Shown piece after piece: positions 3,019 through 32,000 of a DNA stretch of 32,000 nt. Below the pieces are notes generated by a model. The model did not search any database. It saw nothing but the letters and a program-made list of their open reading frames with translations, and had not been told where the DNA came from. This DNA comes from Dubosiella newyorkensis (GTDB lineage: Bacteria > Bacillota_I > Bacilli_A > Erysipelotrichales > Erysipelotrichaceae). The position numbers were made by a program, and so were the translations under genes. The DNA lies in contig NZ_MPKA01000067.1 in the NCBI RefSeq assembly GCF_001945605.1, forward strand, positions 1 through 32,000. The letters run 5' to 3'. Every line of letters begins with the position of its first letter. The stretch's first letter is position 1.

Positions 3019-4601
3019 TAGAATCCCATCTTCTCCATCACATGAATATCTTCAGGCTGGAAGGAGAGTCCGACCTCTTTGCCTTCCTCCACAAAATCTG
3101 TCGTATGGATCTTCAATTCCCGACCTGTCGTCCAGAACGTCATCGGATAGATCCCTTCCTTGATCGTGTCTGGATCAAAGTTATAATCCACCGAAAGATC
3201 GACTTTCTCATCTTCATTGTCCAGTTTCCAGCCTTGCGCGTTCGCCCACGTCTTCAAATCCGTATCGAGAGCCATCGATTCTTTGATCTCATCGACCGTT
3301 TTAAAGAAGTTGAACGCCGAAACCGCCTCATTCGCCTTTTTATTCTCTACGACACGCTGATCGACCACCCAAATACGGCGTGTGATCGAAAGCCCATTGA
3401 TCGTAGAAAACGTGACCTCATATTGACCGATCTCGTTCTTTAAATCGGTATCCACTTTTTGGATCGGAAAATACTCATCGGTTTCTTTTGACCACGCTTG
3501 CGCATCGGCGCGAGCGATCAGAACCGACTCATCCCAATCCTTCATATCCTCGATATCGAGATAAAAGTCATTCGCCGAGATCCGAACATCTTCTTTTTCC
3601 ACGACATTGGTTTCGTTGTTGTTGACATGCATATTCACAGTCACATGCGTTCCAGGAACCGTCTCGACCATCACTTCATAATGCACACCTTTGAACAACA
3701 CGTTTTCTACCGTCCCAGTCAACTTGCCTTGATTCAGAGGTACGATATCAATATCTTCCGGACGAATGATGATATCCACATTCTCGTTTTCCTTGAATCC
3801 AACATCGACACAATCAAAATTCATATCATCAAAACGCACAAGCTTGTCTTTGAGCATCTTCCCTGGAATGATGTTCGATTCTCCGACGAACTGCGCTACA
3901 TATTTATTGACTGGTTCGTTGTAGATCTCTTGTGGAGAGCCCACCTGCTGGATCTCCCCCTCCTTCATAACCACGATCTTATCCGACATCGTCAGCGCCT
4001 CTTCTTGATCGTGCGTCACAAAAATAAACGTGATCCCGACCTCTTGCTGGATCCGCTTCAATTCGTACTGCATCTCCTTGCGAAGCTTGAGATCGAGCGC
4101 CCCTAACGGCTCATCCAAAAGCAGAACATTTGGCTCGTTTACCAACGCTCTTGCGATCGCGACCCGCTGCTGCTGGCCCCCCGAAAGAAGGGTGACATCT
4201 TTATTTTCATACCCCTCTAGACCAATTAGACGCAGCATCTTCATCACCTTCTGCTCGATGACATCTTTACTCATCTTTTTGATTTTCAAGCCAAAAGCGA
4301 TATTATCAAACACATTCATATGCGGAAAGAGAGCGTACTTTTGAAACACCGTATTCAGCTCCCGCTTATAAGGAGGCAGTTTCGCGATATCTTTTCCATC
4401 AAAGATCACTTCTCCTTTATCCGGTTCTAGAAAGCCGCCTAAGATCCGCAGTAGCGTCGTTTTTCCGCAGCCACTCGGCCCTAAGAGCGTCACAAACTCG
4501 TTTTGATAAATATCGAGATCGATCCCTTTCAATATGATCTGGTTGTCAAATTTCTTGACAATATTCTTAAATTGAATGATCTTCTTGTTTTCTTGTTCCA
4601 T
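3018..4601 (-). CDS. potA: spermidine/putrescine ABC transporter ATP-binding protein PotA with large C-terminal insertion
   Basis: Walker [10 protein letters not shown], signature [15 protein letters not shown], Walker [13 protein letters not shown]-loop FVTHDQ. The TOBE-like tail is interrupted by about 180 extra residues before the terminal [13 protein letters not shown] strand. AAAGGA RBS upstream. Confidence 0.93.
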
Positions 4602-4614
4602 GGTCTGATCCTTT

Positions 4615-5148
4615 CTAAAACATCGGAGGCATCGTGATCCAAAGCACCTTGGCTTCTTTGCGACTCGGATTCTTTAAATAATGACTTGGCGCCGCGTTCA
4701 AATAAAACGTCTCTTTCGCCTTGAGACGATACGTCTCTTTCCCCATCACTAGGCAAATATCGCCTTTCAGCACATAGCCAAACTCTTGGCCGCGATGTGG
4801 ATCGATCGTCTGCGAGATCCCATTGCCTTCTAGCGTGAGCAAGATCGGCTCCATCTCGTTTTTTTGCGCGTTCGGCACGATCCACTCGATCGTATACCCT
4901 TCTTGCTCGGAGACAAAAAAATCCTCCTTGCCAAAAACGACCTGCTCCTTTCCTTCTTCTTTAAAAAAGGAAGCGAGATTCGTTCCGAGCGCTTCGAGAA
5001 TATCTTCCAATGAAGAGATGCTCGGAGAAGTCAAATTCCGTTCGACTTGCGACAGAAAACCTTTCGTCAGCTCCGAACGAGAAGCGAGTTCCTCAAGCGT
5101 CAGATCATTGGTAAGACGCAGTTGTTTGATCTTTGTTCCAATGTCCAT
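4615..5148 (-). CDS. XRE-family HTH plus cupin domain transcriptional regulator (PuuR-like), first gene of the pot operon
   Basis: N-terminal HTH ([32 protein letters not shown]), C-terminal cupin-like beta region. AAGGAGCGGAG RBS. 13-nt gap to potA. Confidence 0.88.
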
Positions 5149-5335
5149 ACTCCGCTCCTTGTGTTTAAAATATAAAACTATTTATTTATATCTAACAAAC
5201 AATCATTATTATAAACAAAAAGTTTGCAAATACAATACACAACTGATTGCTATTTTTTTATTGTTATATCTCAAGCAAAACAATAGGGTTCCAACATAAG
5301 TGACCCTATACTAAATATTGAAAGAAGGAAAAAAA

Positions 5336-5623
5336 ATGGAACAAAAAGAATATCCAACCGATGCGTTCGTCAAAGAAGCGCACGAAAAACACATTCCGAT
5401 CATCGATGTGCGTCCAAAAGAAATGTATGAAGAAGGCCACATTCCAGGAGCGATCAATATCCCGCTCTCTACGATCCAAGATGCGGATGTCAAAGATGGA
5501 AGCTACCTCTATTGTATAATCGGCTACCACGCCGGACTCGCCCAAGAAGCACTCGCAAAAAGAGGCATCCACACGACCGATATCGGCGGACTCGATTTCT
5601 ATCACGGACCACTTGAAAAATAA
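5336..5623 (+). CDS. rhodanese-like domain protein
   Basis: IPIIDVRPKEMYEEGHIPGAINIP is the typical rhodanese N-motif; candidate active-site Cys is in YLYCIIGYHAG. ATG 5336 preferred over the TTG at 5318 in the ORF track (GAAGGA SD 8 nt upstream). Confidence 0.85.
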   Translation: MEQKEYPTDAFVKEAHEKHIPIIDVRPKEMYEEGHIPGAINIPLSTIQDADVKDGSYLYCIIGYHAGLAQEALAKRGIHTTDIGGLDFYHGPLEK

Positions 5624-5624
5624 A

Positions 5625-5651
5625 AAAGATAGAGCCAAAAACTCTATCTTT
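5625..5651. terminator. bidirectional terminator shared by rhodanese gene and trkH
   Basis: AAAGATAGAG-(7 nt)-CTCTATCTTT with T/A runs on both sides. The trkH stop codon lies inside the right arm. Confidence 0.8.
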
Positions 5652-7101
5652 TTATGAATTGCTTTCTTACGGAATACAGCGCGACAAAGACGACGAAAAT
5701 CTCCAAACGACCCAACACCATTCCGATCATTTCCACGAGCAAGACAGGCTCGATCGTCTGCGGTCCCGTCATTCCGAAAGACAAGCCGACCGTTCCTAAA
5801 GAAGAGGCAAAATCAAACAAGGCTTCGATCACGCCACAATTGGAAAACACACAAATCAAGAACGTCCCCGCCATCAAGATCAATATATAGACCCCAATAA
5901 AACAAAAGATCTGCCGGATCAAAGCATCTGTTGCCCTTACTTTTCCTTGCGTGCGCGTAAATTCGATCGAGGAAAGTCCAGGAACATCTTCCACTTCTCT
6001 TCTTATATGTGCTTTGATCGCCTTCAAAAACAAATCGACTCGCATGATCTTGATCCCTCCTGCTGTAGAGCCCATTCCACCTCCGATGATCATCAAAACG
6101 AGCAGCACACATATCGGAGCGGAGGTCCACTCTGCATACGACATCGAAGAAAAGCCCGTCGTCGAGATTGCCGAAATTCCATCTAGGAGCGCTTTTCGAA
6201 AACTCTCGATCCACGAAAAGTCCATCTGAAAGCGAAGCAGCACAGTCAATACCACAACAGAAGCGACGATCAAGCCGCTCATGAACTTGACTTCGCTCAC
6301 CTTCCAAACTTGCTTGAACTTGCCTTTGGTCAAAAGAAGCAGCACCGCAAAATTCGTCGTTCCAAACAACATCAATACGACCGTCACGAGCTCGATCGCC
6401 CAAGAATCGTATTCGCCAATGCTTCCAGCCTTTACCGAAAATCCTCCTGTCGAAAGAGAAGCCATCGCGTGGTTGATCGAATCAAAAAGAGGCATGCCCG
6501 CCATACAATAAGCCAACGTGCCTGCTGCCAACAAAAAAAGAAAGATCTTAAAGATCGTCCTTGCGGTTTTTTTCAAAGTCGGCATGAGCTGATCTGGATG
6601 CCCTTCGCTTTGAAAAAGCATCACATCGTGTGGGTCGTGTGTGACCATGACCATCATCATCACAAAGCCTAGGCCGCCACAAAACTGCATGAAGCTGCGA
6701 TGAAACAAAAAGATATGCGGCACTTGGTTTACATCCATGACTGAAAGGCCTGTCGTCGTCCATCCCGAAGTCGATTCAAACAACGACTGGATCAAAGGAA
6801 GCTGTCCAGAAAACACAAAAGGCATGGCGCCGATCAAGATCGCCCAAAGCCACGTCCCCACCACGACAAGCGCGCTCTTTTTTCCAAGAGCTGGACGGTT
6901 TTCTTTTGAAGATCCCTTTTTCTGACAAGAACGAACATAAAGCAGCGTCCCGATGCCAACGGAAAACAACCCACTGTATAAAAAAGACAAACTATATTTT
7001 AAATCTTGCGGATAAAACACCACCACCCCAATAGGAATAAGACATAAAAGCCCAATCAAGATCATTAGTTTACCAAAACAAATGTTTACGCTGCTTTTCA
7101 T
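5644..7101 (-). CDS. trkH: TrkH/KtrB-family potassium uptake membrane protein
   Basis: 485-aa polytopic protein with repeated pore-loop motifs (SGWTTTGLS, STGGFS, STTGFS, STAGGIK). AAAGGAGAAAAG RBS before ATG 7101. Overlaps the upstream trkA by 32 nt. Confidence 0.92.
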   Translation of the reverse strand: MKSSVNICFGKLMILIGLLCLIPIGVVVFYPQDLKYSLSFLYSGLFSVGIGTLLYVRSCQKKGSSKENRPALGKKSALVVVGTWLWAILIGAMPFVFSGQLPLIQSLFESTSGWTTTGLSVMDVNQVPHIFLFHRSFMQFCGGLGFVMMMVMVTHDPHDVMLFQSEGHPDQLMPTLKKTARTIFKIFLFLLAAGTLAYCMAGMPLFDSINHAMASLSTGGFSVKAGSIGEYDSWAIELVTVVLMLFGTTNFAVLLLLTKGKFKQVWKVSEVKFMSGLIVASVVVLTVLLRFQMDFSWIESFRKALLDGISAISTTGFSSMSYAEWTSAPICVLLVLMIIGGGMGSTAGGIKIMRVDLFLKAIKAHIRREVEDVPGLSSIEFTRTQGKVRATDALIRQIFCFIGVYILILMAGTFLICVFSNCGVIEALFDFASSLGTVGLSFGMTGPQTIEPVLLVEMIGMVLGRLEIFVVFVALYSVRKQFIKR

Positions 7102-7756
7102 TGCTCTTTTCTCCTTTCAGGATTTGGATCGCTTCTTGTTTTTGGACATCACTTGTGATCAGCACGAGCTGATCGCCTTCCATGATCGTCGTTTCTCCTT
7201 GGGGAACGAACAATCCATCCTGTCGTAAAATACTGCCAATCACAGTATTGCTCGGAAGCGAGAGCTCCCATAACTTTTTATGGATCGCAGCGTCGCTCGC
7301 CTCCATATCCAACTTGACGATCTGAAGTCCTTCTTCCAACCGCATTTCGTCCATAAACGCCTCTTGTTCGATCATGCGCGTGATCAAAGAGACTGCGCAG
7401 ACAACGCGATCGACCCCACATCGTATAAAGAACTTCTTGTTGGCTAAATTACTTACAAGCGCAGTCGTACGCACCTTTGGAAAAATATTCTTCGCTAGGC
7501 GGCAAATCATCAAATTGTCTTCATCTCGCGGACAGAGCGCAATGACTTGACAAAACGCTTCCATTTGCAGATCTTCAAGGACATAGGGTTTTGTCCCATC
7601 GGCACAAATAACTTTTGAAGGACGATATTCCATTAGCTTTTGACAATCTTCTTCGCTTTTATTGATCAAAACTGGCATCATTCCTCGAGTGGATAAAGAT
7701 TGGGCGAGCGATTTCGCTTTAGCGCGCCCTCCAACGATCAATACTTTTTCTTTCAT
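7070..7756 (-). CDS. trkA: TrkA-type RCK protein (TrkA-N Rossmann plus TrkA-C domain)
   Basis: KVLIVGGRAKAKSLAQSL Rossmann start. C-terminal TrkA-C-like region (GLQIVKLDMEASDAAIHKKLWELSLP...GDQLVLITS). GGAG RBS. Confidence 0.85.
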   Translation of the reverse strand: MKEKVLIVGGRAKAKSLAQSLSTRGMMPVLINKSEEDCQKLMEYRPSKVICADGTKPYVLEDLQMEAFCQVIALCPRDEDNLMICRLAKNIFPKVRTTALVSNLANKKFFIRCGVDRVVCAVSLITRMIEQEAFMDEMRLEEGLQIVKLDMEASDAAIHKKLWELSLPSNTVIGSILRQDGLFVPQGETTIMEGDQLVLITSDVQKQEAIQILKGEKSNEKQRKHLFW

Positions 7757-7759
7757 GTT

Positions 7760-8218
7760 CTATCTCCGTAAAATTTGCGTATTCTCGCTTTCCTTCTGCA
7801 ACAAAGAAGAACAGCGCTCTACCCATAGATCATCTAAACAAATCGTTTCGATCGCATAACCATCCATCACCTGTTTTCTTTCTGGATCGATTAAGCGGAC
7901 AAAGATCTTGGCATGCTCGTTACACTCTCTTAAAAGAAGAGCGCACATCACATTCGTGCAATCATCATTGGTCGTCACGAAGATCTGATCCATCTCTTTT
8001 ACGTGGACCATCGACAAATCATCCATATCTGTCACATTTCCGCATGCTTTCAATCCATCATAATTTGGAGATAGCTTGACGAAGGCCGCTTCGTTTTGGT
8101 CCACGATCGTGACGCTCTCTTCTCTTTGCGAACAAAGGCTCGCTAGAGAAGCGCCTAATCGAGAACATCCAAGAACGAGCACGTTATGTTCATGCTTTCT
8201 ATTTCTTCCTTTTACCAT
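7760..8218 (-). CDS. TrkA-N (RCK N-terminal, NAD-binding) domain-only protein
   Basis: NVLVLGCSRLGASLASLCSQREESVTIVDQNEAAF is a Rossmann beta-alpha-beta. Strong AAGGAGG RBS 7 nt upstream of ATG 8218. Confidence 0.82.
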   Translation of the reverse strand: MVKGRNRKHEHNVLVLGCSRLGASLASLCSQREESVTIVDQNEAAFVKLSPNYDGLKACGNVTDMDDLSMVHVKEMDQIFVTTNDDCTNVMCALLLRECNEHAKIFVRLIDPERKQVMDGYAIETICLDDLWVERCSSLLQKESENTQILRR

Positions 8219-8544
8219 GCTAGTAACCTCCTTTTCTTGGGCGTTTCTTCATACACGCCACTTCCTCGATATTCGACTTCGCTGAATAAAAATAAATTTT
8301 CTTTTGCGGGCGTATATGTCGAATCGAGTCCGACAGCAGCCCGAAAATGCTTGATCGCTGTTTGGCGGTTGCCGATCTTCATCAACAACAACCCCATAAA
8401 ATTATGTGGCTGCGGAGAATCTGGATATTCCATCATAAGATCCAAGATCTTCTGTCTTCCTAATTCATACTTTCTATTTTCTATATATTCACGAATTTCT
8501 TGACTTGCCTGCCGCAAGTTCATCGTTGTTTGTTCCACGTTCAT
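8212..8544 (-). CDS. small TPR-like repeat protein (start uncertain)
   Basis: HNFMGLLLMKIGNRQTAIKHFRAAVGLDSTYTPAKENL resembles a TPR helix pair. The ORF-track start at 8589 is a TTG without an SD. ATG 8544 follows GCGAGG, though the spacing is short. The 3' end overlaps the trkA-N gene by 7 nt. Confidence 0.6.
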   Translation of the reverse strand: MNVEQTTMNLRQASQEIREYIENRKYELGRQKILDLMMEYPDSPQPHNFMGLLLMKIGNRQTAIKHFRAAVGLDSTYTPAKENLFLFSEVEYRGSGVYEETPKKRRLLAW

Positions 8545-8643
8545 TGCCTCGCTTTCAACTACAGTATAAGCATACAGAAAACGATGCAAGAAAGGTGTGA
8601 GAGTCGACTTTTGAATGTTAGAATTGTGTGAGGAAAGAAAAAT

Positions 8644-10134
8644 ATGCTACAGACGACTCCAAAAGCGCAAAAATCGCTTCTTAAAAACCTTGGCATGATG
8701 ATCTTATGCCTTTTATTACCGACTGCGATCGGCTTTTTATTTATTTCCTTCAAGCTGAGCGACACGACGATCATCTTGTTGTATTTATTTGGCGTGGTTT
8801 TGTGCGCCAAGTTCACAGATGGTTTTTACTATGGGATCAACGCGTCGGTGATCGCGGTGATGCTCTTCAACTATTTTTTCACCGATCCCCTATTTACTTT
8901 GCGGGTGAATAATTCCGATTATCCGATCACGATGCTGATCATGATGATCATTTCCCTTTTGATCAGCACATTGACCTCGCAAGAAAAACAAAGCGCAACT
9001 CTCGCTCGGCATAGCGCCTTGCAAGCCACGACGCTCTACAACTTTACGAACACGCTTTTAGAAGCCAACGAGATCGAGCAAGCCCAAGAGATCATCGTTC
9101 GCTCCTTTAGCGACACGTTCCATACTAAAGCCGCTTTTTTACCTCAGACCAAAAAAGGCCAGGCGGCCCCTTATCTTCTCCAGCAAATCCAAGCGAACAC
9201 GATTAAGCATCGAAAATATCGACCAGAAAATCTAGAGCGCGAGTTTTCAAGTTGGCCCATCAAAAACAAAGAGGGCGCTTTTGGCTTGCTTTTGCTTCCA
9301 AAAATAAAAGAGGGCGGCTTTGACGAGGCTCAAAAACAACTCATCCATTCGATGTGCGCCTGCGCGGCTTTGGGATTGGATCGGATCGAGAACCTCCATC
9401 AATATATGGCTTCGCAAGAAAAGATCACCCAAGAACAATATCGTTCGAATTTGCTTCGATCCATTTCCCACGATCTTAGGACCCCGCTTTCAGGGATCAT
9501 GGGAACGAGCGAAGTCCTCATGCGACTTGAAATCTCTCAAGAAGAGCGTATCCAAATGGCGCAAGGTATTTATCAAGAGGCAAGCTGGCTTTATTCACTC
9601 GTTGAAAATATCTTGAATCTTACACGGATGGAAGAAGGACATCTTATTTTGAACAAGCAAGAAGCGCTTGCCGAAGAAATCATCGAAGCGGCTTGCTCGA
9701 CGGTCGAAAAGCGCAATAAAGATCGAACGATCCAAGTAAACATCCCCTCTGAGATCATCACGGTCGATGTCGATGAAAAGCTGATCGTTCAGCTGCTCGT
9801 TAACTTGCTTGAAAACGCGATCCGGCATACGCCCCAAGAAAATAAAGTCGAGATCGTTCTCGAAGCCGATCCTATCAAAAAAGAAGTCCGCTTTATTGTC
9901 CAGGATGAAGGCGAGGGAATCGGCAAAGAAGATTTGCCACATATTTTTGAGCCTTTTTATACATCGAGCCAAAATCAAAAAGATCGAGCGCGCGGCATCG
10001 GACTTGGTCTTGCGATCTGTCGTTCGATCGCCCAAGCGCATGATGGAGAACTGACAGCGCATAATCGTTGTGATCGAAGCGGCGCTCGATTCATATGCAC
10101 CCTCCTTATGACAGAAAGGAAAGATCTATCGTGA
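8644..10134 (+). CDS. sensor histidine kinase, KdpD C-terminal type (DUF4118 membrane domain, GAF-like, HisKA, HATPase), lacking the N-terminal KdpD/Usp sensor domains
   Basis: Four-TM N-terminus typical of the KdpD membrane module. H-box SISHDLRTPLSGI, N-box LLENAIRHTP, G-boxes DEGEGI and GIGLGLAICRSIAQAH. Confidence 0.88.
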   Translation: MLQTTPKAQKSLLKNLGMMILCLLLPTAIGFLFISFKLSDTTIILLYLFGVVLCAKFTDGFYYGINASVIAVMLFNYFFTDPLFTLRVNNSDYPITMLIMMIISLLISTLTSQEKQSATLARHSALQATTLYNFTNTLLEANEIEQAQEIIVRSFSDTFHTKAAFLPQTKKGQAAPYLLQQIQANTIKHRKYRPENLEREFSSWPIKNKEGAFGLLLLPKIKEGGFDEAQKQLIHSMCACAALGLDRIENLHQYMASQEKITQEQYRSNLLRSISHDLRTPLSGIMGTSEVLMRLEISQEERIQMAQGIYQEASWLYSLVENILNLTRMEEGHLILNKQEALAEEIIEAACSTVEKRNKDRTIQVNIPSEIITVDVDEKLIVQLLVNLLENAIRHTPQENKVEIVLEADPIKKEVRFIVQDEGEGIGKEDLPHIFEPFYTSSQNQKDRARGIGLGLAICRSIAQAHDGELTAHNRCDRSGARFICTLLMTERKDLS

Positions 10135-11282: not shown

Positions 11283-12254
11283 TTACTTTGACAAATCAAC
11301 ATGAAGCAAATCCGCTCGCTCCTTGATCAATCGTTTCACGTTTTCTTTTTCTTCTTCAGGCAAAAAAGATTGTTCGCACGCTTCCAAAAAAAGATCAATA
11401 TTTTTCAGCATTCGTTCGATTAGTCTTTCAGCAGTTTTCTTTTCGATCTCAATTGAATGCGCAAACTTCAAAAAATCCCCTCGCCTCAAATTTCGTTTTT
11501 TTCCATTCAACGTTAAAGCGGTTTGATCTAAATCTGTAGGCATCACGATATTAACAGGAAGTTGATCATACACCGGAGAAAGCTGATATACACCCGCTTT
11601 GTTTTGAATCAACGAGAAATTTTTTAAATGCATATCGGAATTGCCAATAAGAAACGCAAAAACAAGCCGGATAAACAATTCAGTCAAGTCGAATTGATAG
11701 AAAGCCGAATATTTTTTTATCGTTTTCGCACACCGCTCATAAGAACTGTTGTATTTGTCTTCCGTTAAACGGTTCTGAAGCTGGCAAAAATCTTCCATCG
11801 CCATTTTTACGACTTTTTTCTTTTTCTCCACCCGGTCAATTCGTTTCGTAATATACGCCAACGTCCCGTTTGTTAATCGAATCAACCCGAATGGGACGGC
11901 AGGAATCTTAGCGATTTGCGCAAGACGCATCCCCAGCTGCTCAAATTCAGGAAGATAAGAAAATTTTTCTGTTTGTGGTTTTAAAATATACCCTGTCGGA
12001 TAATCCACGATCGTTAACCTCGATCCCGTCTCTTCTTCGATCAAATGTAAAGAAAGCTTTTTTTGAACGCCAGGCACCGTATATCCTTCGCTTACCGTTT
12101 TTCGGGCGATTTCCTGCAAGATCGAATCATCCAAATCAAGAACCGGATGCAAAGTCATTCCGAAAAATTTTTTAGTACATCCCGTATGCCATTGCGACTC
12201 CATTTCTTCTGGCGTAGGATCGACAAGCTCTTTGCCACAATATAAACATCTCAT
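11283..12254 (-). CDS. hipT: HipT-like serine/threonine kinase toxin (HipA C-terminal kinase core only)
   Basis: Gly-rich loop TVPGVQKKLSLHL, catalytic motif IGNSDMHLKNFSL, Mg-binding LSPVYDQLP. N-terminal CxxC...HxxC knuckle (MRCLYCGKELV...WHTGCTKKFFG). ATGA overlap with hipS. Confidence 0.88.
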   Translation of the reverse strand: MRCLYCGKELVDPTPEEMESQWHTGCTKKFFGMTLHPVLDLDDSILQEIARKTVSEGYTVPGVQKKLSLHLIEEETGSRLTIVDYPTGYILKPQTEKFSYLPEFEQLGMRLAQIAKIPAVPFGLIRLTNGTLAYITKRIDRVEKKKKVVKMAMEDFCQLQNRLTEDKYNSSYERCAKTIKKYSAFYQFDLTELFIRLVFAFLIGNSDMHLKNFSLIQNKAGVYQLSPVYDQLPVNIVMPTDLDQTALTLNGKKRNLRRGDFLKFAHSIEIEKKTAERLIERMLKNIDLFLEACEQSFLPEEEKENVKRLIKERADLLHVDLSK

Positions 12255-26694: not shown

Positions 26695-27372
26695 TCAATC
26701 TGGTTTAAATCTATAAATATCTAAAGGTTGTCTACTCTGATCTTTCCATTCCTTCCAACCATTTATTGCTTTTCCAATTACTACCGAACCCGCCGTGGAT
26801 GGAGAATGACAAATAACATTTTGTTGCAAAATATTATTCTTAATCTGCGCATTTTTTCTGCATTCAGGCAGTCGATCCTGATCTGATGGAGCACATGTAC
26901 TTCCTTTGAGTACAATAAAATTCCCATCCTTCACTTCCATAGCGGCTTTCACCAACCCAAACCCCTTAACTTTTCGATTCAAAAAATACGTTCCTTCTGG
27001 AATATTTCCGCATTCTTCATTACTTCTTCTTTTCTTTGTGGCTTCAGTAAACACTTGTTCTTTTGTTTCCATACTTGGATAGATTTGAAGTCCTTCAAAT
27101 GACGACAAAAGCTGTATTACCAAATCTAGATCCAATGCAAAAAGCTCTGTATTTGGAACTCGACTCTTACTAAAAATATCATCCAATAAAGCCTCTTTTT
27201 CATCATAATCATTCACTTCAATCGCAAATTTTCTGCGTAATCCAGTTACATTTGAATATCCATTACGCTCTAAGTTATACATGCGTGATTCAAAATTATT
27301 TTTCCCTGTTTTTCCGATCTTAATCAATCCAGGAACAACAGTACTCATCACATAGATTATTCCTTTAGCCAT
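26695..27372 (-). CDS. T5orf172 (GIY-YIG-like) domain protein with DUF4357-like C-terminal domain
   Basis: N-terminal GIIYVMSTVVPGLIKIGKTGKNNFESRMYNL...TELFAL pattern. C-terminal FIVLKGS...SPSTAGSVVIGKAINGWKEWK pattern. AAGGAT RBS. Confidence 0.75.
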   Translation of the reverse strand: MAKGIIYVMSTVVPGLIKIGKTGKNNFESRMYNLERNGYSNVTGLRRKFAIEVNDYDEKEALLDDIFSKSRVPNTELFALDLDLVIQLLSSFEGLQIYPSMETKEQVFTEATKKRRSNEECGNIPEGTYFLNRKVKGFGLVKAAMEVKDGNFIVLKGSTCAPSDQDRLPECRKNAQIKNNILQQNVICHSPSTAGSVVIGKAINGWKEWKDQSRQPLDIYRFKPD

Positions 27373-27401: not shown

Positions 27402-27430
27402 ATTATATCGCACTCATAAAGCTTCATCAA
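27402..27430 (-). promoter_or_regulatory. promoter of the T5orf172 gene; its -35 lies inside the 18-bp inverted repeat
   Basis: Minus strand: TTGATG (27425-27430), 17-nt spacer, TATAAT (27402-27407). Confidence 0.5.
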
Positions 27431-27439
27431 CGTAAGTCG
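27422..27439. repeat. inverted-repeat arm L (CTTCATCAACGTAAGTCG); plus-strand relic of an hsdS 3' end (..IKLHQRKSLLKS*)
   Basis: Exact reverse complement of 28404-28421. Read on the plus strand it encodes LHQRKS, the conserved C-terminal motif of HsdS. Confidence 0.85.
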
Positions 27440-27450
27440 CTATTAAAATC

Positions 27451-28377
27451 TTAACCGAGTGTGGATAAAGATCTCATAACCAGATCTATATCCTTGTTTT
27501 CTAATTCTTGAATAATATGTATATAAGTCTTTTGGGTCGTAGTCATACTCGCATGTCCTAACCGACGTGCAACACTTGCTGTGGAAACACCCGCAAACAA
27601 TAACAATGAGGCATGAGTATGACGAAGTCCATGAATTGTAATGACTGGAATATTCGTCTCCCTGCAGTGTCTAGCCAAAACATCATTTGCTGTTGAATTA
27701 TAGATTTTCTTATTTACAAAAATCGGATCTTCTTCCGGTAAATTTTTAACTAACGTTGAAAATTGAACGACTGTTTGCCAATCAATTTGAATTTTACGAA
27801 CAGAAGAAGCATTCTTGGTAGGTAAAAAACCGCCACTTCCTTTGTAATCCCAAGTTTTTGAAACCGATATAGTTTGCCTAGAAAAATCAAAATCTTTTGG
27901 TGTAATAGCAAGAGCTTCTGAAAATCGCATTCCTGTTTTAGCTACAAGCAAAATAAACCAATCCCATGAAATTTCTTCTTTTAAATAAAGAGAGGCTATA
28001 AGAGTATGGAGTTCATATTGATTTAAGTATTTAATTTTCTTATCCCTGGGCTGTTTCCCTTTTATGATTGCTTTACGTGTTGGATCTCTTGGAATTAGAC
28101 CTTCATCAACCGCATCTAAAATAGCTCCCTTTAGCTGATGATGAAAATCCATCGTAGTTTGTTTTTCGTGATCTAGAGCATAATCATTCAAAATCTGTTG
28201 ATACGTTATTCTAGATAAATCTCCAAGATGTAAATTAGGCGCTAACTTTTTTACCCACCTCAATGACATATAATACTTATTTAATGTTACGTCACGAATA
28301 GCACCTTTCTTATAAACTTCGATCCATTTTTCAAAATATTCCCAAAACAGAATTGTATTATTAACTTCATTAATCAT
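27451..28377 (-). CDS. tyrosine site-specific recombinase (phage-integrase family, hsdS-shufflon type)
   Basis: Catalytic residues in GMRFSEALAI (R), HGLRHTHASLLL (HxxR) and LGHASMTTTQKTYIHI (H, Y). ATG 28377 has GGAG 9 nt upstream. The ORF-track ATG 28401 (ATGA overlap with the hsdS' stop) is an alternative start. Confidence 0.9.
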   Translation of the reverse strand: MINEVNNTILFWEYFEKWIEVYKKGAIRDVTLNKYYMSLRWVKKLAPNLHLGDLSRITYQQILNDYALDHEKQTTMDFHHQLKGAILDAVDEGLIPRDPTRKAIIKGKQPRDKKIKYLNQYELHTLIASLYLKEEISWDWFILLVAKTGMRFSEALAITPKDFDFSRQTISVSKTWDYKGSGGFLPTKNASSVRKIQIDWQTVVQFSTLVKNLPEEDPIFVNKKIYNSTANDVLARHCRETNIPVITIHGLRHTHASLLLFAGVSTASVARRLGHASMTTTQKTYIHIIQELENKDIDLVMRSLSTLG

Positions 28378-28403
28378 CTTTTTTTCTCCATCTTTGTTCA
28401 TAA

Positions 28404-28421
28404 CGACTTACGTTGATGAAG
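28404..28421. repeat. inverted-repeat arm R (CGACTTACGTTGATGAAG) at the 3' end of the silent hsdS cassette
   Basis: Exact reverse complement of 27422-27439. Encodes LHQRKS on the minus strand. Confidence 0.85.
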
Positions 28422-28959
28422 GGTGATAAGGTGATCGAGATAATTAAAAAAATTTCCAATCTTTCCTTGTTCCACTAGAGATTTTGGATAAGATATATAA
28501 GTTGACTTTAAAGAAGTTTTAGAAATTGAACTAACTTTAATCCCTTGTGTTAACGGGAGCAATTGATCATGATAATAAGCTGAATTTAAATAATAGCCAA
28601 GATAACGTGGCGCAAATTTACTTTGTGGTCGATAAGGAATAGTATGTAACCCAGAAATCACAATTTCTTCCGTTAATCCTTCAATTTCTGTACATTTCCC
28701 CACAGTTTCATCTTCAGCTGTATCTGCCATAACGATATCGCCATTTTTTAAAAATGATTCTTTATATTTTGAAATGATAGATTCATCTTTTATTGTTGGT
28801 AATTCCTCTTTTTTTACATTTAGTACTTCACTAAAAATAACTAATAAATCTCCATAGTGAACATTTTTAACTTTTCCTTCTCCAGACGATAGTTCAGCTC
28901 TTGAAAGAGTATTATTTTGTAAGTTTATAAATGCTTCGCCTAACCTTCGCTGTTCCCAA
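28407..28959. repeat. 553-bp direct repeat, copy 1 (TRD1 cassette)
   Basis: Same orientation as 31418-31970 (offset 3011 bp). One mismatch (28413 T vs 31424 C); 28414-28959 is identical to 31425-31970 by eye. Confidence 0.9.
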
Positions 28960-28999
28960 ACAAAAACAAAAGGAGAGCAAAAAAAATAAATTGGCTCTC
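28958..28999 (-). terminator. weak terminator-like hairpin between hsdM and the silent cassette
   Basis: Minus strand: GAGAGC-(15 nt)-GCTCTC followed by CTTTTGTTTTTGTTT. Confidence 0.4.
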
Positions 29000-29083
29000 A
29001 AATTCTCTCTTTCAATTTTTTATAACAAATTGGATTGAATTGAATCAAATTGAACAAAAAATCTATATTTTTTATATGAGTTT

Positions 29084-30697
29084 CTACTGAATTGGGGTTA
29101 ATCCTAACATTTTTAATTGTTCATTGATTTCTTTTTGAAGCTTTTGAATCTCTTCATCATCTTTAGATATTTCACGAATGACTGCTTCAAGATCAATTTC
29201 TTCTTCAGGCTCAGAAGTATCAACATATCTTGGAATGTTTAGATTATAATCATTACTCTCTATCTCAGCGTAAGTAGCTACATGTGAATACTTATCTATA
29301 TCTTCTCGATTCTTGTAAGTTTGGTAAATTTTTTCAATATTCTCTTTTGTTAAAATATTTTTGTTTTTTATTTTTTCGTACTCGTTGCTTGCATCAATAA
29401 AAAATACATCTCTAGTCTTTTTGTTACGCTTTAGAACCATAATAATGGTTGGAATACTCGTTCCATAAAACAAATTAGCTGGTAATCCAATAATAGTATC
29501 AATCAAGTTTTTCTTAATTAGATTTTCTCGAATCATTCCTTCTGCAGCACCTCTAAAAAGAACTCCATGAGGTAATACGATTGCCATAGTTCCTTCACTA
29601 TTTAGATGAAAGAGTCCGTGAAGAAGAAATGCATAGTCCGCTTTAGATTTTGGAGCAGTTCTTCCATAGTCTTTGTATCGCGGATCTTTAATCGTGCTTT
29701 CAGTTGGTTCCCATTTTGCAGAATATGGCGGATTTGCTACGACCGCATCAAATGAACGTGGATGATCGATTCCTTTTGCATCTGGTCCATCTGGCCAGTC
29801 TCTCCCCAACGTATTCGCATTACTAATATGCATATTTTGATAGTTAACACCATGCATCATTAGATTCATCCGAGCTAAGTTATATGTTGTTGTATTCATT
29901 TCTTGCCCATAATATTGAATAGCTCCCGGTTTATGACCACCTTTTAACTCATCTCCTACCGTAAGCAGCAAAGAACCTGACCCACAAGTAGGATCGTATA
30001 CAGTAAAGGCTTGCTTTTCAGCTTCTTTATCTTCTGTTACAATCTTAGCCATTACTATAGAAACTTCGTGAGGAGTATAAAACTCTCCGCCCTTTTTTCC
30101 TGCTGACGCAGCAAATTGTTGAATTAAATACTCATAAATTGATCCTAAAACATCTTTTCCAGAATCATCTTTATAAGCAATATCATTCACTAAATTTACA
30201 ATTTTATTTAACGACTTTGCACGATCAACCGTTGTCGTTCCTAATCGAGAGTCGCCTAAATTTACATCACTAAATACGCCATAAAAGTCAATCTCGGCTT
30301 CCTTATTCATTTTGGTACTCGCATTGAATTCATCAAATATTTTTTGATAATCGCTTGGAATCACCTTAGAATTATTAATTTTATCGATTAAGGATTGCCA
30401 TGTATTCTCAGGCATAATTCCATAACCAAGAGCTGAAGTTAATTCTTCCAAAAAATCTTTTCTATTTTCTTCATTATTGGCATCTTTTGCATAAGCTTCA
30501 TTAACCGTCATACCAGGTTCAACTATTATCAAGTCTTGATCAACCAAATAATTCATCTGTTTTTCTGAAAGATACCGATAAAACATAAAAGCTAAAATAT
30601 AGTTTTTATATTCAGAAGCATCCATTGTTCCACGAAGCTTATTAGCCATCTCCCAAAGAGAAGACTTGATTTCATCTAATTTTCTTTTTTCTGACAT
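29084..30697 (-). CDS. hsdM: Type I restriction-modification system methyltransferase subunit
   Basis: N-terminal HsdM_N pattern (LWEMANKLRG..YKNYILAFMFYRYLS), AdoMet motif DPTCGSGSLLL, catalytic NPPYS. Confidence 0.95.
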   Translation of the reverse strand: MSEKRKLDEIKSSLWEMANKLRGTMDASEYKNYILAFMFYRYLSEKQMNYLVDQDLIIVEPGMTVNEAYAKDANNEENRKDFLEELTSALGYGIMPENTWQSLIDKINNSKVIPSDYQKIFDEFNASTKMNKEAEIDFYGVFSDVNLGDSRLGTTTVDRAKSLNKIVNLVNDIAYKDDSGKDVLGSIYEYLIQQFAASAGKKGGEFYTPHEVSIVMAKIVTEDKEAEKQAFTVYDPTCGSGSLLLTVGDELKGGHKPGAIQYYGQEMNTTTYNLARMNLMMHGVNYQNMHISNANTLGRDWPDGPDAKGIDHPRSFDAVVANPPYSAKWEPTESTIKDPRYKDYGRTAPKSKADYAFLLHGLFHLNSEGTMAIVLPHGVLFRGAAEGMIRENLIKKNLIDTIIGLPANLFYGTSIPTIIMVLKRNKKTRDVFFIDASNEYEKIKNKNILTKENIEKIYQTYKNREDIDKYSHVATYAEIESNDYNLNIPRYVDTSEPEEEIDLEAVIREISKDDEEIQKLQKEINEQLKMLGLTPIQ

Positions 30698-30703
30698 ATT
30701 CTT

Positions 30704-30720
30704 TATCCTATTAAATAGGA
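30704..30720. promoter_or_regulatory. 17-bp perfect palindrome ATCCTATT-A-AATAGGAT just upstream of the hsdM ATG
   Basis: Lies between an AAAGGAGA SD-like sequence and the hsdM start (7 nt from the ATG). Function unknown. Confidence 0.3.
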
Positions 30721-30760
30721 TTCTCCTTTCTTTTATATCAAATTGTAATCTGCTTAATCA

Positions 30761-32000
30761 TTAAACAAACATTTGTTGTAAGAGTCCTTTTTTCAATTCT
30801 TTCAAGTGATCTAGCTTTCGCTGATGAAGGGTAATAAGATGGTCAATCTGGTTAAAAAATAAAGCGATTCTTTCTTGTTCTTGTTTTGAAGGATAAATCA
30901 TCAAATATTTCAACATTTCTTCAATCTTTAATACTCGATTTCTTCCAGCTCCTCCTGGTGAAGATAACCATAAATGATGACGAAACCGCTCATCAATAAT
31001 CACATATCGGAAAAAATCTGGAACCATATCATCGTGAAACGAGAACTGAGGGAATCGATGAGAAACAAGCTTTCCAGCATCGTTTATATCTGTAATAGCT
31101 ACAGCATGTTCCCATCCAAAAGTAATATTTACGATAAATTTTCCCTCTGCTACCCGATACATCTGGGCTGTCTCTAACTCATTCCCTTTTTTTACGTAGC
31201 TGTGAAAAGTACCTTTTGCATGACTTCTAATGCCTAAACGATTATATCCTTCATGGGGCGTATTTACAGCATCGACATATTTATCCACTATTTCTCCAAA
31301 CCTACGCTGTTCCCAATCGTTTTTGAATCCTGGGAAGCGTAACTCGGGAACTTTTTCTCCATTTTTTGGAAACATTTTTTGCAATAAGCCTTTTTTTAAC
31401 TTTTTTAGATCATCAAGCTTACGCTGATGAAGGGTGATAAGGTGATCGAGATAATTAAAAAAATTTCCAATCTTTCCTTGTTCCACTAGAGATTTTGGAT
31501 AAGATATATAAGTTGACTTTAAAGAAGTTTTAGAAATTGAACTAACTTTAATCCCTTGTGTTAACGGGAGCAATTGATCATGATAATAAGCTGAATTTAA
31601 ATAATAGCCAAGATAACGTGGCGCAAATTTACTTTGTGGTCGATAAGGAATAGTATGTAACCCAGAAATCACAATTTCTTCCGTTAATCCTTCAATTTCT
31701 GTACATTTCCCCACAGTTTCATCTTCAGCTGTATCTGCCATAACGATATCGCCATTTTTTAAAAATGATTCTTTATATTTTGAAATGATAGATTCATCTT
31801 TTATTGTTGGTAATTCCTCTTTTTTTACATTTAGTACTTCACTAAAAATAACTAATAAATCTCCATAGTGAACATTTTTAACTTTTCCTTCTCCAGACGA
31901 TAGTTCAGCTCTTGAAAGAGTATTATTTTGTAAGTTTATAAATGCTTCGCCTAACCTTCGCTGTTCCCAAGGTTCCGTAAATCCAGGGAATCTCAACTTA
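30761..32000 (-). CDS. hsdS: Type I R-M specificity subunit, two TRDs (5' end at or beyond the window edge)
   Basis: Two TRDs, each preceded by RFPGF..WEQRR and followed by HLITLHQRKLD..LKKGLLQ.MF. The ORF-track start at 31996 is a TTG and the frame is still open at base 32000. Confidence 0.9.
   Translation of the reverse strand, partial: KLRFPGFTEPWEQRRLGEAFINLQNNTLSRAELSSGEGKVKNVHYGDLLVIFSEVLNVKKEELPTIKDESIISKYKESFLKNGDIVMADTAEDETVGKCTEIEGLTEEIVISGLHTIPYRPQSKFAPRYLGYYLNSAYYHDQLLPLTQGIKVSSISKTSLKSTYISYPKSLVEQGKIGNFFNYLDHLITLHQRKLDDLKKLKKGLLQKMFPKNGEKVPELRFPGFKNDWEQRRFGEIVDKYVDAVNTPHEGYNRLGIRSHAKGTFHSYVKKGNELETAQMYRVAEGKFIVNITFGWEHAVAITDINDAGKLVSHRFPQFSFHDDMVPDFFRYVIIDERFRHHLWLSSPGGAGRNRVLKIEEMLKYLMIYPSKQEQERIALFFNQIDHLITLHQRKLDHLKELKKGLLQQMFV
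31418..31970. repeat. 553-bp direct repeat, copy 2 (TRD1 of the expressed hsdS)
   Basis: See copy 1. Boundaries coincide with the WEQRR-coding core (CGCTGTTCCCAA) and the LHQRK-coding core (CTTACGCTGATGAAG). Confidence 0.9.

Follow-up and report, generated by a model that had tools for sequence, protein, structure and literature searches.

A duplicated recognition module in a direct-repeat Type I restriction-modification locus of Dubosiella newyorkensis

A 32,000-nt stretch of Dubosiella newyorkensis DNA (contig NZ_MPKA01000067.1, positions 1 to 32,000; hereafter the window) contains a chromosomal Type I restriction-modification (R-M) system, in which one target recognition domain (TRD) module is present both in the expressed specificity gene hsdS and in a silent cassette beyond the methyltransferase gene hsdM. 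With a probability of roughly 60%, we consider this to be a TRD shuffling locus that works through direct repeats in the manner of the tvr locus of Streptococcus pneumoniae, the duplicate being a by-product of non-reciprocal recombination at short core sequences that makes hsdM and TRD2 excisable together. Modules have changed position among D. newyorkensis strains with their borders confined to these cores, the core DNA is conserved among relatives of the adjacent tyrosine recombinase, and related loci hold natural duplicates and core-to-core deletions. We infer that this recombinase is the catalyst, that a circle is an intermediate, and that activity continues in the strain of the window.

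The duplicated module and its cores

The duplicate is a direct repeat of 553 nt (28407-28959 and 31418-31970), with both copies pointing the same way and offset by 3011 nt. A lone mismatch (28413/31424) separates the copies, the longest perfect run is 546 nt (28414-28959), and identity is lost sharply at both borders; such a match cannot have arisen by chance. Read on the minus (coding) strand, the repeat starts 1 base 5' of TGGGAACAGCG, the core that encodes WEQR (28948-28958 and 31959-31969), and ends with CTTCATCA(A/G)CGTAAG, the core that encodes LHQRK (28407-28421 and 31418-31432). An earlier note on this stretch had given the same coordinates, offset, single mismatch and 546-nt run, and had placed the borders exactly at these two hsdS cores; all of these were borne out when recomputed from the window sequence.

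The hsdS, hsdM, silent cassette and tyrosine recombinase genes all lie on the minus strand. The expressed hsdS (30761-32000; Pfam Methylase_S) is 100% identical to a 427-aa D. newyorkensis HsdS (P0122). Its first ~15 codons fall beyond the window end, and the identical N-terminus is visible in L003, a near-isogenic contig from a metagenome-assembled genome (MAG) of the same species. HsdS has two Methylase_S stretches, and its conserved central region shares 73% identity with its conserved C-terminal region, as in a two-TRD subunit. All available D. newyorkensis contigs were cut at both cores and the modules clustered, which gave five TRDs, T1 to T5. In the window, TRD1 is T1 and constitutes repeat copy 1 (31418-31970; WEQR core at 31959-31969, LHQRK core at 31418-31432 reading CTTCATCAGCGTAAG), and TRD2 is T4 (30815-31315; WEQR core at 31305-31315, LHQRK core at 30815-30829), which is replaced by T2 in L003 and in a second near-isogenic MAG contig, L004. 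The N6-adenine methyltransferase subunit gene hsdM (29084-30697) lies between the repeat copies, and its matches to Pfam N6_Mtase (E=6e-115) and HsdM_N are those of a Type I system.

The second copy of T1 is a silent cassette, hsdS' (28398-28959), which consists of repeat copy 2 (28407-28959) with its WEQR core at 28948-28958 and its LHQRK core at 28407-28421 (CTTCATCAACGTAAG) and ends in ...LHQRKSL*. The earlier note had described it as a silent cassette lacking a start codon and following a weak terminator, and its silent character is supported. Neither an ATG nor a ribosome-binding site precedes the cassette, and the 124-nt spacer between hsdM and the cassette (28960-29083, minus strand) does hold a weak terminator-like hairpin (28973-28999) formed by GAGAGC (28994-28999) and GCUCUC (28973-28978), with 6 pairs, a 15-nt loop and a U-rich tail. 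The two details nevertheless need qualification: gene callers gave the cassette an in-frame start ~33 nt upstream (a 197-aa open reading frame (ORF) in L003 and L004), and the terminator is statistically unsupported, as a terminator scan did not report the hairpin and the predicted fold of the region is no more stable than that of shuffled sequences.

A tyrosine recombinase gene abuts the cassette (27451-28377; Pfam Phage_integrase). It encodes 308 aa from an ATG at 28377, which GGAG precedes by 8 nt; a second possible start, the ATG at 28401, overlaps the stop codon of the cassette. The protein (P0001, annotated as a D. newyorkensis integrase) is 100% identical to a protein of that species. 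On the far side of the gene, an inverted LHQRK core without a TRD lies on the plus strand (27413-27446), includes an 18-nt perfect match, CTTCATCAACGTAAGTCG, at 27422-27439, and pairs with 28397-28430. Both the recombinase and this inverted core had been passed over in the earlier note. The two arms form the only inverted pair and flank the recombinase gene alone, so inversion cannot alter hsdS here. The same TRD-less inverted core is found in the D. newyorkensis contigs L001-L004 and L103, in a related group of loci (the P0005 group, below) and in several other genera; a reading of it as a decayed remnant would not by itself account for this retention. It also overlaps a promoter-like TTGATG-17-TATAAT (27430 to 27402, 10/12 matches) that faces the neighbouring PDC-S57 gene.

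Since other D. newyorkensis assemblies hold the same T1 duplicate, an artefact of a single assembly, i.e., a collapsed or mis-joined repeat, as had been considered earlier, is a very unlikely origin for it. The same arrangement occurs in the window's own contig, in the 91-kb L003 (8698-9250 and 11739-12291) and in the 32-kb L004, and these independent assemblies agree. Other short-read contigs (L001, L002, L011 and L103) end exactly at the repeat borders, as they would at a true repeat, and the one difference between the copies matches each copy's own flank. Short-read assemblers do mishandle the region, which gives an artefact its remaining small weight; two contigs show this. L005 1-4213 (GCA_948596625.1) reads T1-T2-hsdM-T1-T4, which is either a tandem two-unit array or a chimeric path, perhaps from a mixed sample. 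L008 1-3041 (SRR34092366) is a closed cycle made of the 3011-nt unit plus 30 nt (k-1), with no break at the branch between the N-terminus and T1; low coverage or a surplus of circle or tandem junctions are both possible reasons. The two contigs are hints at a circular intermediate, and both can be assembly effects.

Module movement in D. newyorkensis and related loci

TRD modules occupy different positions in different D. newyorkensis assemblies. With silent cassettes in square brackets, the window reads hsdS(T1-T4) hsdM [T1] recombinase, L003 and L004 read hsdS(T1-T2) hsdM [T1] recombinase, and L006 (parts of which are also in L007, L009 and L010) reads hsdS(T4?-T1) hsdM [T3][T5] recombinase, where T4 at TRD1 is suggested solely by a 21-nt match to the T4 3' end. 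T5 is at TRD2 in L012 and 14 more samples. T1 is therefore found at TRD1 and in the silent position (window, L003, L004) as well as at TRD2 (L006), and T5 is found silent beside the recombinase (L006, L007) as well as at TRD2 (L012). These shifts, in which the same TRDs stand in different positions as in tvr-type loci, occur among strains with identical HsdM. The comparison with sister strains that the earlier note had proposed shows both the same duplicate and modules relocated at the cores.

The borders of the moved modules are confined to the cores. The window and L003 have zero differences from 30838 to 22913, and within the R-M locus they differ only inside TRD2, between the WEQR and LHQRK cores (31302-30839). 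Polymorphisms within the cores track the flank and not the TRD, for example the A/G at base 9 of the LHQRK core that constitutes the repeat's lone mismatch; judged by these polymorphisms, TGGGAACAG and ACCCTTCATCA must contain the crossovers. Among sister strains, the borders of modules fall within 9-14 nt of common core sequence, and stretches of this length are too short for ordinary, efficient RecA exchange. At least four independent module relocations with borders in these short cores are found in D. newyorkensis. The exchange at the two cores suggested by the earlier note accordingly agrees with the borders in sister strains, and also with precise core-to-core deletions in related loci.

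The recombinase belongs to a family that accompanies multi-hsdS loci in >500 genomes. Of its thousands of homologues, the best 120 listed share at least 75% identity with it, and those in the 80 genome loci retrieved share 72-79%. Among those listed, the hosts are gut Clostridia, Negativicutes and other MAGs, and many of the homologues were called as TRD fusions. At 54-66% identity, the recombinase also matches integrases encoded in Listeria, Enterococcus, Mycoplasma and Ligilactobacillus records. The L. innocua integrase (65% identical) lies between opposed hsdS genes, in the order hsdS, integrase and then opposed hsdS-hsdM-hsdR, a convergent inverted layout; the L. salivarius pMP118 match has no annotated hsdS alongside in the PLSDB table and was not used for architecture. 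General resources place the protein broadly: against NCBIfam it gave generic Xer/integron-integrase matches below cut-off, PADLOC has no model for it, and a PDB sequence search returned only phage/Tn-type integrase domains.

Direct orientation of the modules is the majority layout in this family. Where at least 1.5 kb of hsdS was in reach, 14 of 18 loci are co-directional with direct repeats only. Among the 26 loci with at least two exact WEQR cores, these all lie on the recombinase strand in 18, all on the opposite strand in 1, and on both strands in 7. In the 80 species loci, the WEQR 12-mers read TGGGAACAGCGT in every case (104/104), and the LHQRK 15-mers read CTTCATCAGCGTAAG in 39/81, compared with ~1% expected from codon usage. 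The core DNA is thus conserved at synonymous sites beyond the need of the protein. Because this conservation exceeds the coding need, it points to a function at the DNA level, and the cores would most simply be recombination sites.

Duplicated and relocated modules recur in related loci. In the P0005 group, whose recombinase is 85% identical to that of the window, the gene order is hsdM-hsdS-Fic-hsdR-[cassette][cassette]-recombinase-Mrr, and the modules T8 and T9, silent in one contig, are expressed in a second one, the borders overlapping by 22-25 nt. In one contig of this group (L099 1-3328), hsdM-N-T8-central-T14 runs straight into the inter-cassette linker, T15 and the recombinase with Fic-hsdR left out; the contig represents a deletion form or else results from a jump through a duplicated TRD. 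A silent cassette equals the expressed TRD1 at 99% in a Kineothrix contig (L076), duplicates are silent-silent in L014 and L054, and two like TRDs stand inside one hsdS in L044 and L063. In L104 (10001-15564), the hsdS for a 617-aa product with three TRDs precedes four further hsdS ORFs; nine co-directional LHQ cores or cassettes are present, inverted repeats are absent, and tandem units measure 603 and 1891 nt.

Core-to-core deletions are found in a set of ten contigs, most of them 50-800 kb, that carry one identical recombinase annotated as Huintestinicola sp. and have 2+1, 1+2 and 2+2 layouts. In one of them (L109), the expressed TRD2 equals a silent cassette over 529 nt at 100% identity (5114-5642 and 8840-9368) with hsdR in between, a direct parallel to the window. 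L110 corresponds to L109 minus 4545-9455, a deletion from WEQR core to WEQR core with a 21-nt overlap, and L113 corresponds to L108 minus 5685-9360, a deletion between two LHQRK cores with a 35-nt overlap. In both deleted contigs (L110, 69 kb; L113, 121 kb) the flanks are 99.9-100% identical, hsdM-hsdS-recombinase is kept and hsdR is gone. On these contig comparisons, the type of deletion predicted for the window does appear to occur naturally in the recombinase family, at both cores. L110 and L113 would also be methylation-only Type I states in natural gut populations.

Alternatively, the duplicate might be a static relic of a one-time RecA gene conversion or unequal crossover, now inert beside a recombinase that is idle or acts on inverted sites only, with the strain differences arising from horizontal exchange of hsdS modules. 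The window, L003 and L004 do share one fixed configuration with identical copies, only T1 and one other TRD are left in each, no within-sample variants have been demonstrated, and the sole inverted repeat pair flanks the recombinase gene itself. Moreover, the relative inspected for hsdS architecture in an annotated record (L. innocua) is inverted, and inversion is the published mode for loci of that kind (PMC7672463). Borders within 9-14 nt of identity are, in contrast, too short for efficient RecA, and relocations with such borders have occurred at least four times here, as well as in the P0005 and Huintestinicola groups. Synonymous sites within the cores are conserved in 80 species, and a co-directional layout in the family majority would be odd if the enzyme could not act there. 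We therefore regard a static relic as unlikely, without being far-fetched.

Mechanism, its alternatives and genomic setting

In the direct-repeat shuffling that we favour, each TRD is a module bracketed by TGGGAACAGCG (WEQR) and ACC-CTTCATCA (LHQRK). As the modules all point one way, recombination between like cores cannot invert them. Within one chromosome it would delete or circularise the intervening DNA; between chromosome copies, or between a circle and the chromosome, it would move, swap or duplicate modules. Duplicates would need a non-reciprocal step, because reciprocal excision and re-insertion conserve the copy number of each TRD. Two routes may be envisaged. In the first, non-allelic cassettes on two copies of the chromosome would cross over at a WEQR core and at an LHQRK core, leaving both daughters with an expressed module equal to the silent one. 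In the second, unequal exchange or circle integration would give a tandem array of T1-TRD2-hsdM units, from which a unit would later be lost. An array such as that of L005 could yield the window type by one deletion and the L003 type by another, which would account for a difference restricted to TRD2; L005, if real, is a common precursor of both. Of the readings that the earlier note had listed, that of a recent duplication or gene-conversion-like event best describes the origin of the repeat.

The outcome in the window is that T1 is both the expressed TRD1 and the sole silent cassette, so that no new TRD is on offer. Recombination could now return the arrangement unchanged, give single-TRD forms of hsdS or remove the 3011-bp hsdM and TRD2 unit; an hsdS(T1-T1) with T4 silent could also arise through excision at the WEQR core and re-insertion at the LHQRK core. 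The 3011-bp unit would be deletable both by core recombination and by RecA acting on the 553-nt identity. The deletion geometry given in the earlier note, with loss of hsdM and TRD2 and N-term-T1-LHQRKSL* left behind, is correct from the sequence.

Whether this geometry serves a programmed ON/OFF switch is another matter. Such a switch, in which reversible excision of hsdM and TRD2 through the direct repeat would turn the whole R-M system off and on, had been offered earlier as a reading; it is unproven, and we consider it improbable. The geometry permits it, hsdR-less deletion forms persist in long contigs of a related species (L110, L113), and tvr loci have a shortened form after circle loss (PMC6265443). 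In D. newyorkensis, however, no deletion form was found among the assemblies, and a circle without recombinase, origin or addiction module would rarely re-integrate. Loss through RecA on the 553-nt identity would be irreversible, and the residual N-T1-SL* would have no central helix. Identical duplicates at varied positions in relatives (silent-silent, TRD1-TRD2) also fit a by-product better than a switch.

Several observations weigh against direct-repeat shuffling as we propose it. Neither a deletion form nor a circle junction was found among the D. newyorkensis assemblies, and an exact-pattern scan of JGI metagenome contigs for the cassette-recombinase junction gave no matches. All the variation seen lies between assemblies or samples rather than within a clone, and horizontal exchange or infrequent homologous recombination could have produced it; the proposal also does not explain where the T2/T4 difference between near-isogenic strains comes from. 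Some of the contigs relied on here (L005, L099 and perhaps also L110 and L113) might reflect the route of an assembler through repeated TRDs. The repertoire of the window strain is down to T1 and T4, so its locus may in effect be locked. Unlike that of tvr, the recombinase is not part of the excisable unit, and an origin-less hsdM circle would be lost unless quickly re-inserted. Lastly, the linkage of a recombinase is no proof of catalysis: pneumococcal spnIII inversions are reported to be possible without any known site-specific recombinase (PMC6620402).

The genes around the locus are as follows. The gene for hsdR is outside the window; in the near-isogenic L003, hsdR (1064 aa; HSDR_N, ResIII and EcoR124_C) is directly upstream of hsdS, and its position in the window's own strain is taken from that contig. 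L003 also carries a 188-aa half-size HsdS-like ORF that overlaps the hsdR start (4861-5427) and has weak MAD5/specificity-subunit matches; it was rejected as a cassette source, having neither core and no repeat in common with hsdS. On the other side, 3' of the recombinase, is a T5orf172/DUF4357 gene (26695-27372, minus strand) that matches the PADLOC candidate defence family PDC-S57 (E=1e-105), with ilvC convergent beyond it. The R-M locus thus adjoins a second putative defence gene, and the P0005 group has an Mrr-type nuclease gene in that place. The remainder of the window consists of ordinary chromosomal genes (the trp operon, nanE, ilvC and transporters). Amid these housekeeping genes, a toxin-like HipA_C-domain kinase gene (11283-12254, minus strand) is unrelated to the duplicate.

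Comparison with known systems

Two well-known processes offer mechanistic analogies only. In recombinase-mediated cassette exchange with Cre or FLP, two heterospecific sites allow a cassette to be swapped between two DNA molecules. In gene conversion from silent donors, as in pilE/pilS and vlsE, non-reciprocal copying leaves the expressed copy identical to the silent donor, and the window likewise has an expressed module equal to a silent one.

Inversion shufflons of hsdS, or epigenetic invertons, have been published for Listeria, Ligilactobacillus salivarius, Enterococcus and Mycoplasma (Huang et al. 2020, PMC7672463). The D. newyorkensis locus resembles them in its homologous recombinase (54-66%), in the retained hsdS 3' end, recombinase and inverted LHQRK core, and in TRDs set within the same WEQR/LHQRK motifs; here, too, a site-specific recombinase lies beside multiple hsdS sequences. 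In invertons, the silent and the expressed hsdS have opposite orientations and inversion is the mode of switching, whereas the three WEQR and three TRD-linked LHQRK cores of the D. newyorkensis locus are on one strand and no inverted repeats bracket the TRDs; none of the contigs is in an inverted form. Among the 46 loci sampled by Huang et al. 2020 (PMC7672463), the sole exception, a direct-repeat hsdS locus in Sphaerochaeta halotolerans, was mentioned without analysis. It too is a Type I locus with a recombinase and multiple hsdS sequences in which the repeats are direct and not inverted, and it comes from a different phylum. A 2025 preprint on epigenetic phase variation in the gut (PMC11741434) describes inverted repeats, and the terms "direct repeat" and "excision" are absent from its text.

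The related loci suggest a wider pattern, which we put forward tentatively and at somewhat less than even odds. In this widespread recombinase family of gut Firmicutes, the usual variation of Type I specificity may be direct-repeat recombination at two hyper-conserved cores and not inversion. TRD modules would be moved, duplicated or deleted together with hsdM or hsdR, and duplicated TRDs (including palindromic TRD-TRD alleles) and restriction-less or methylase-less states would be regular, with the window as one such state. If this is true, direct-repeat shufflons are common and not the rare exception assumed by the inverton literature. Among the papers found, none describes direct-only architecture, duplicates and deletions removing hsdM or hsdR as a family pattern. 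Surveys of phase-variable Type I systems (Huang et al. 2020, PMC7672463; PMC11741434) seek inverted repeats beside an "invertase", and loci with direct repeats only would be missed or read as static. An active direct-repeat mode would have outcomes beyond those of inversion, i.e., duplicated TRDs, symmetric specificities and loss of hsdM or hsdR. Such a mode would change how gut Firmicutes, among them the mouse commensal Dubosiella newyorkensis, are searched for methylome heterogeneity and phage defence, and would serve as a warning that short-read assemblies of such loci are unreliable.

The closest precedent is the tvr (SpnIV) locus of S. pneumoniae, in which two kinds of direct repeat, excision and reintegration driven by TvrR, circular intermediates and a shortened form after circle loss have been described (Kwun et al. 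2018, PMC6265443); the earlier note had lacked it. Because this direct-repeat shuffling of hsdS is published, the direct orientation seen here is unusual yet not unprecedented. A word search of the tvr paper for "duplicat" was without match. The excised tvr circle carries the recombinase and the TvrAT toxin-antitoxin pair, located between hsdM and hsdR. In D. newyorkensis, by contrast, the recombinase is downstream of the last direct repeat and hence off the excisable segment, there is no toxin-antitoxin pair, and the excisable unit holds hsdM and TRD2 (hsdR in most relatives). The two loci nonetheless share a Type I system with several co-directional TRDs, two kinds of direct repeat and a tyrosine recombinase within the locus, as well as a weak terminator-like element upstream of the recombinase and strain variants comparable to the 2+1, 2+2 and shortened forms.

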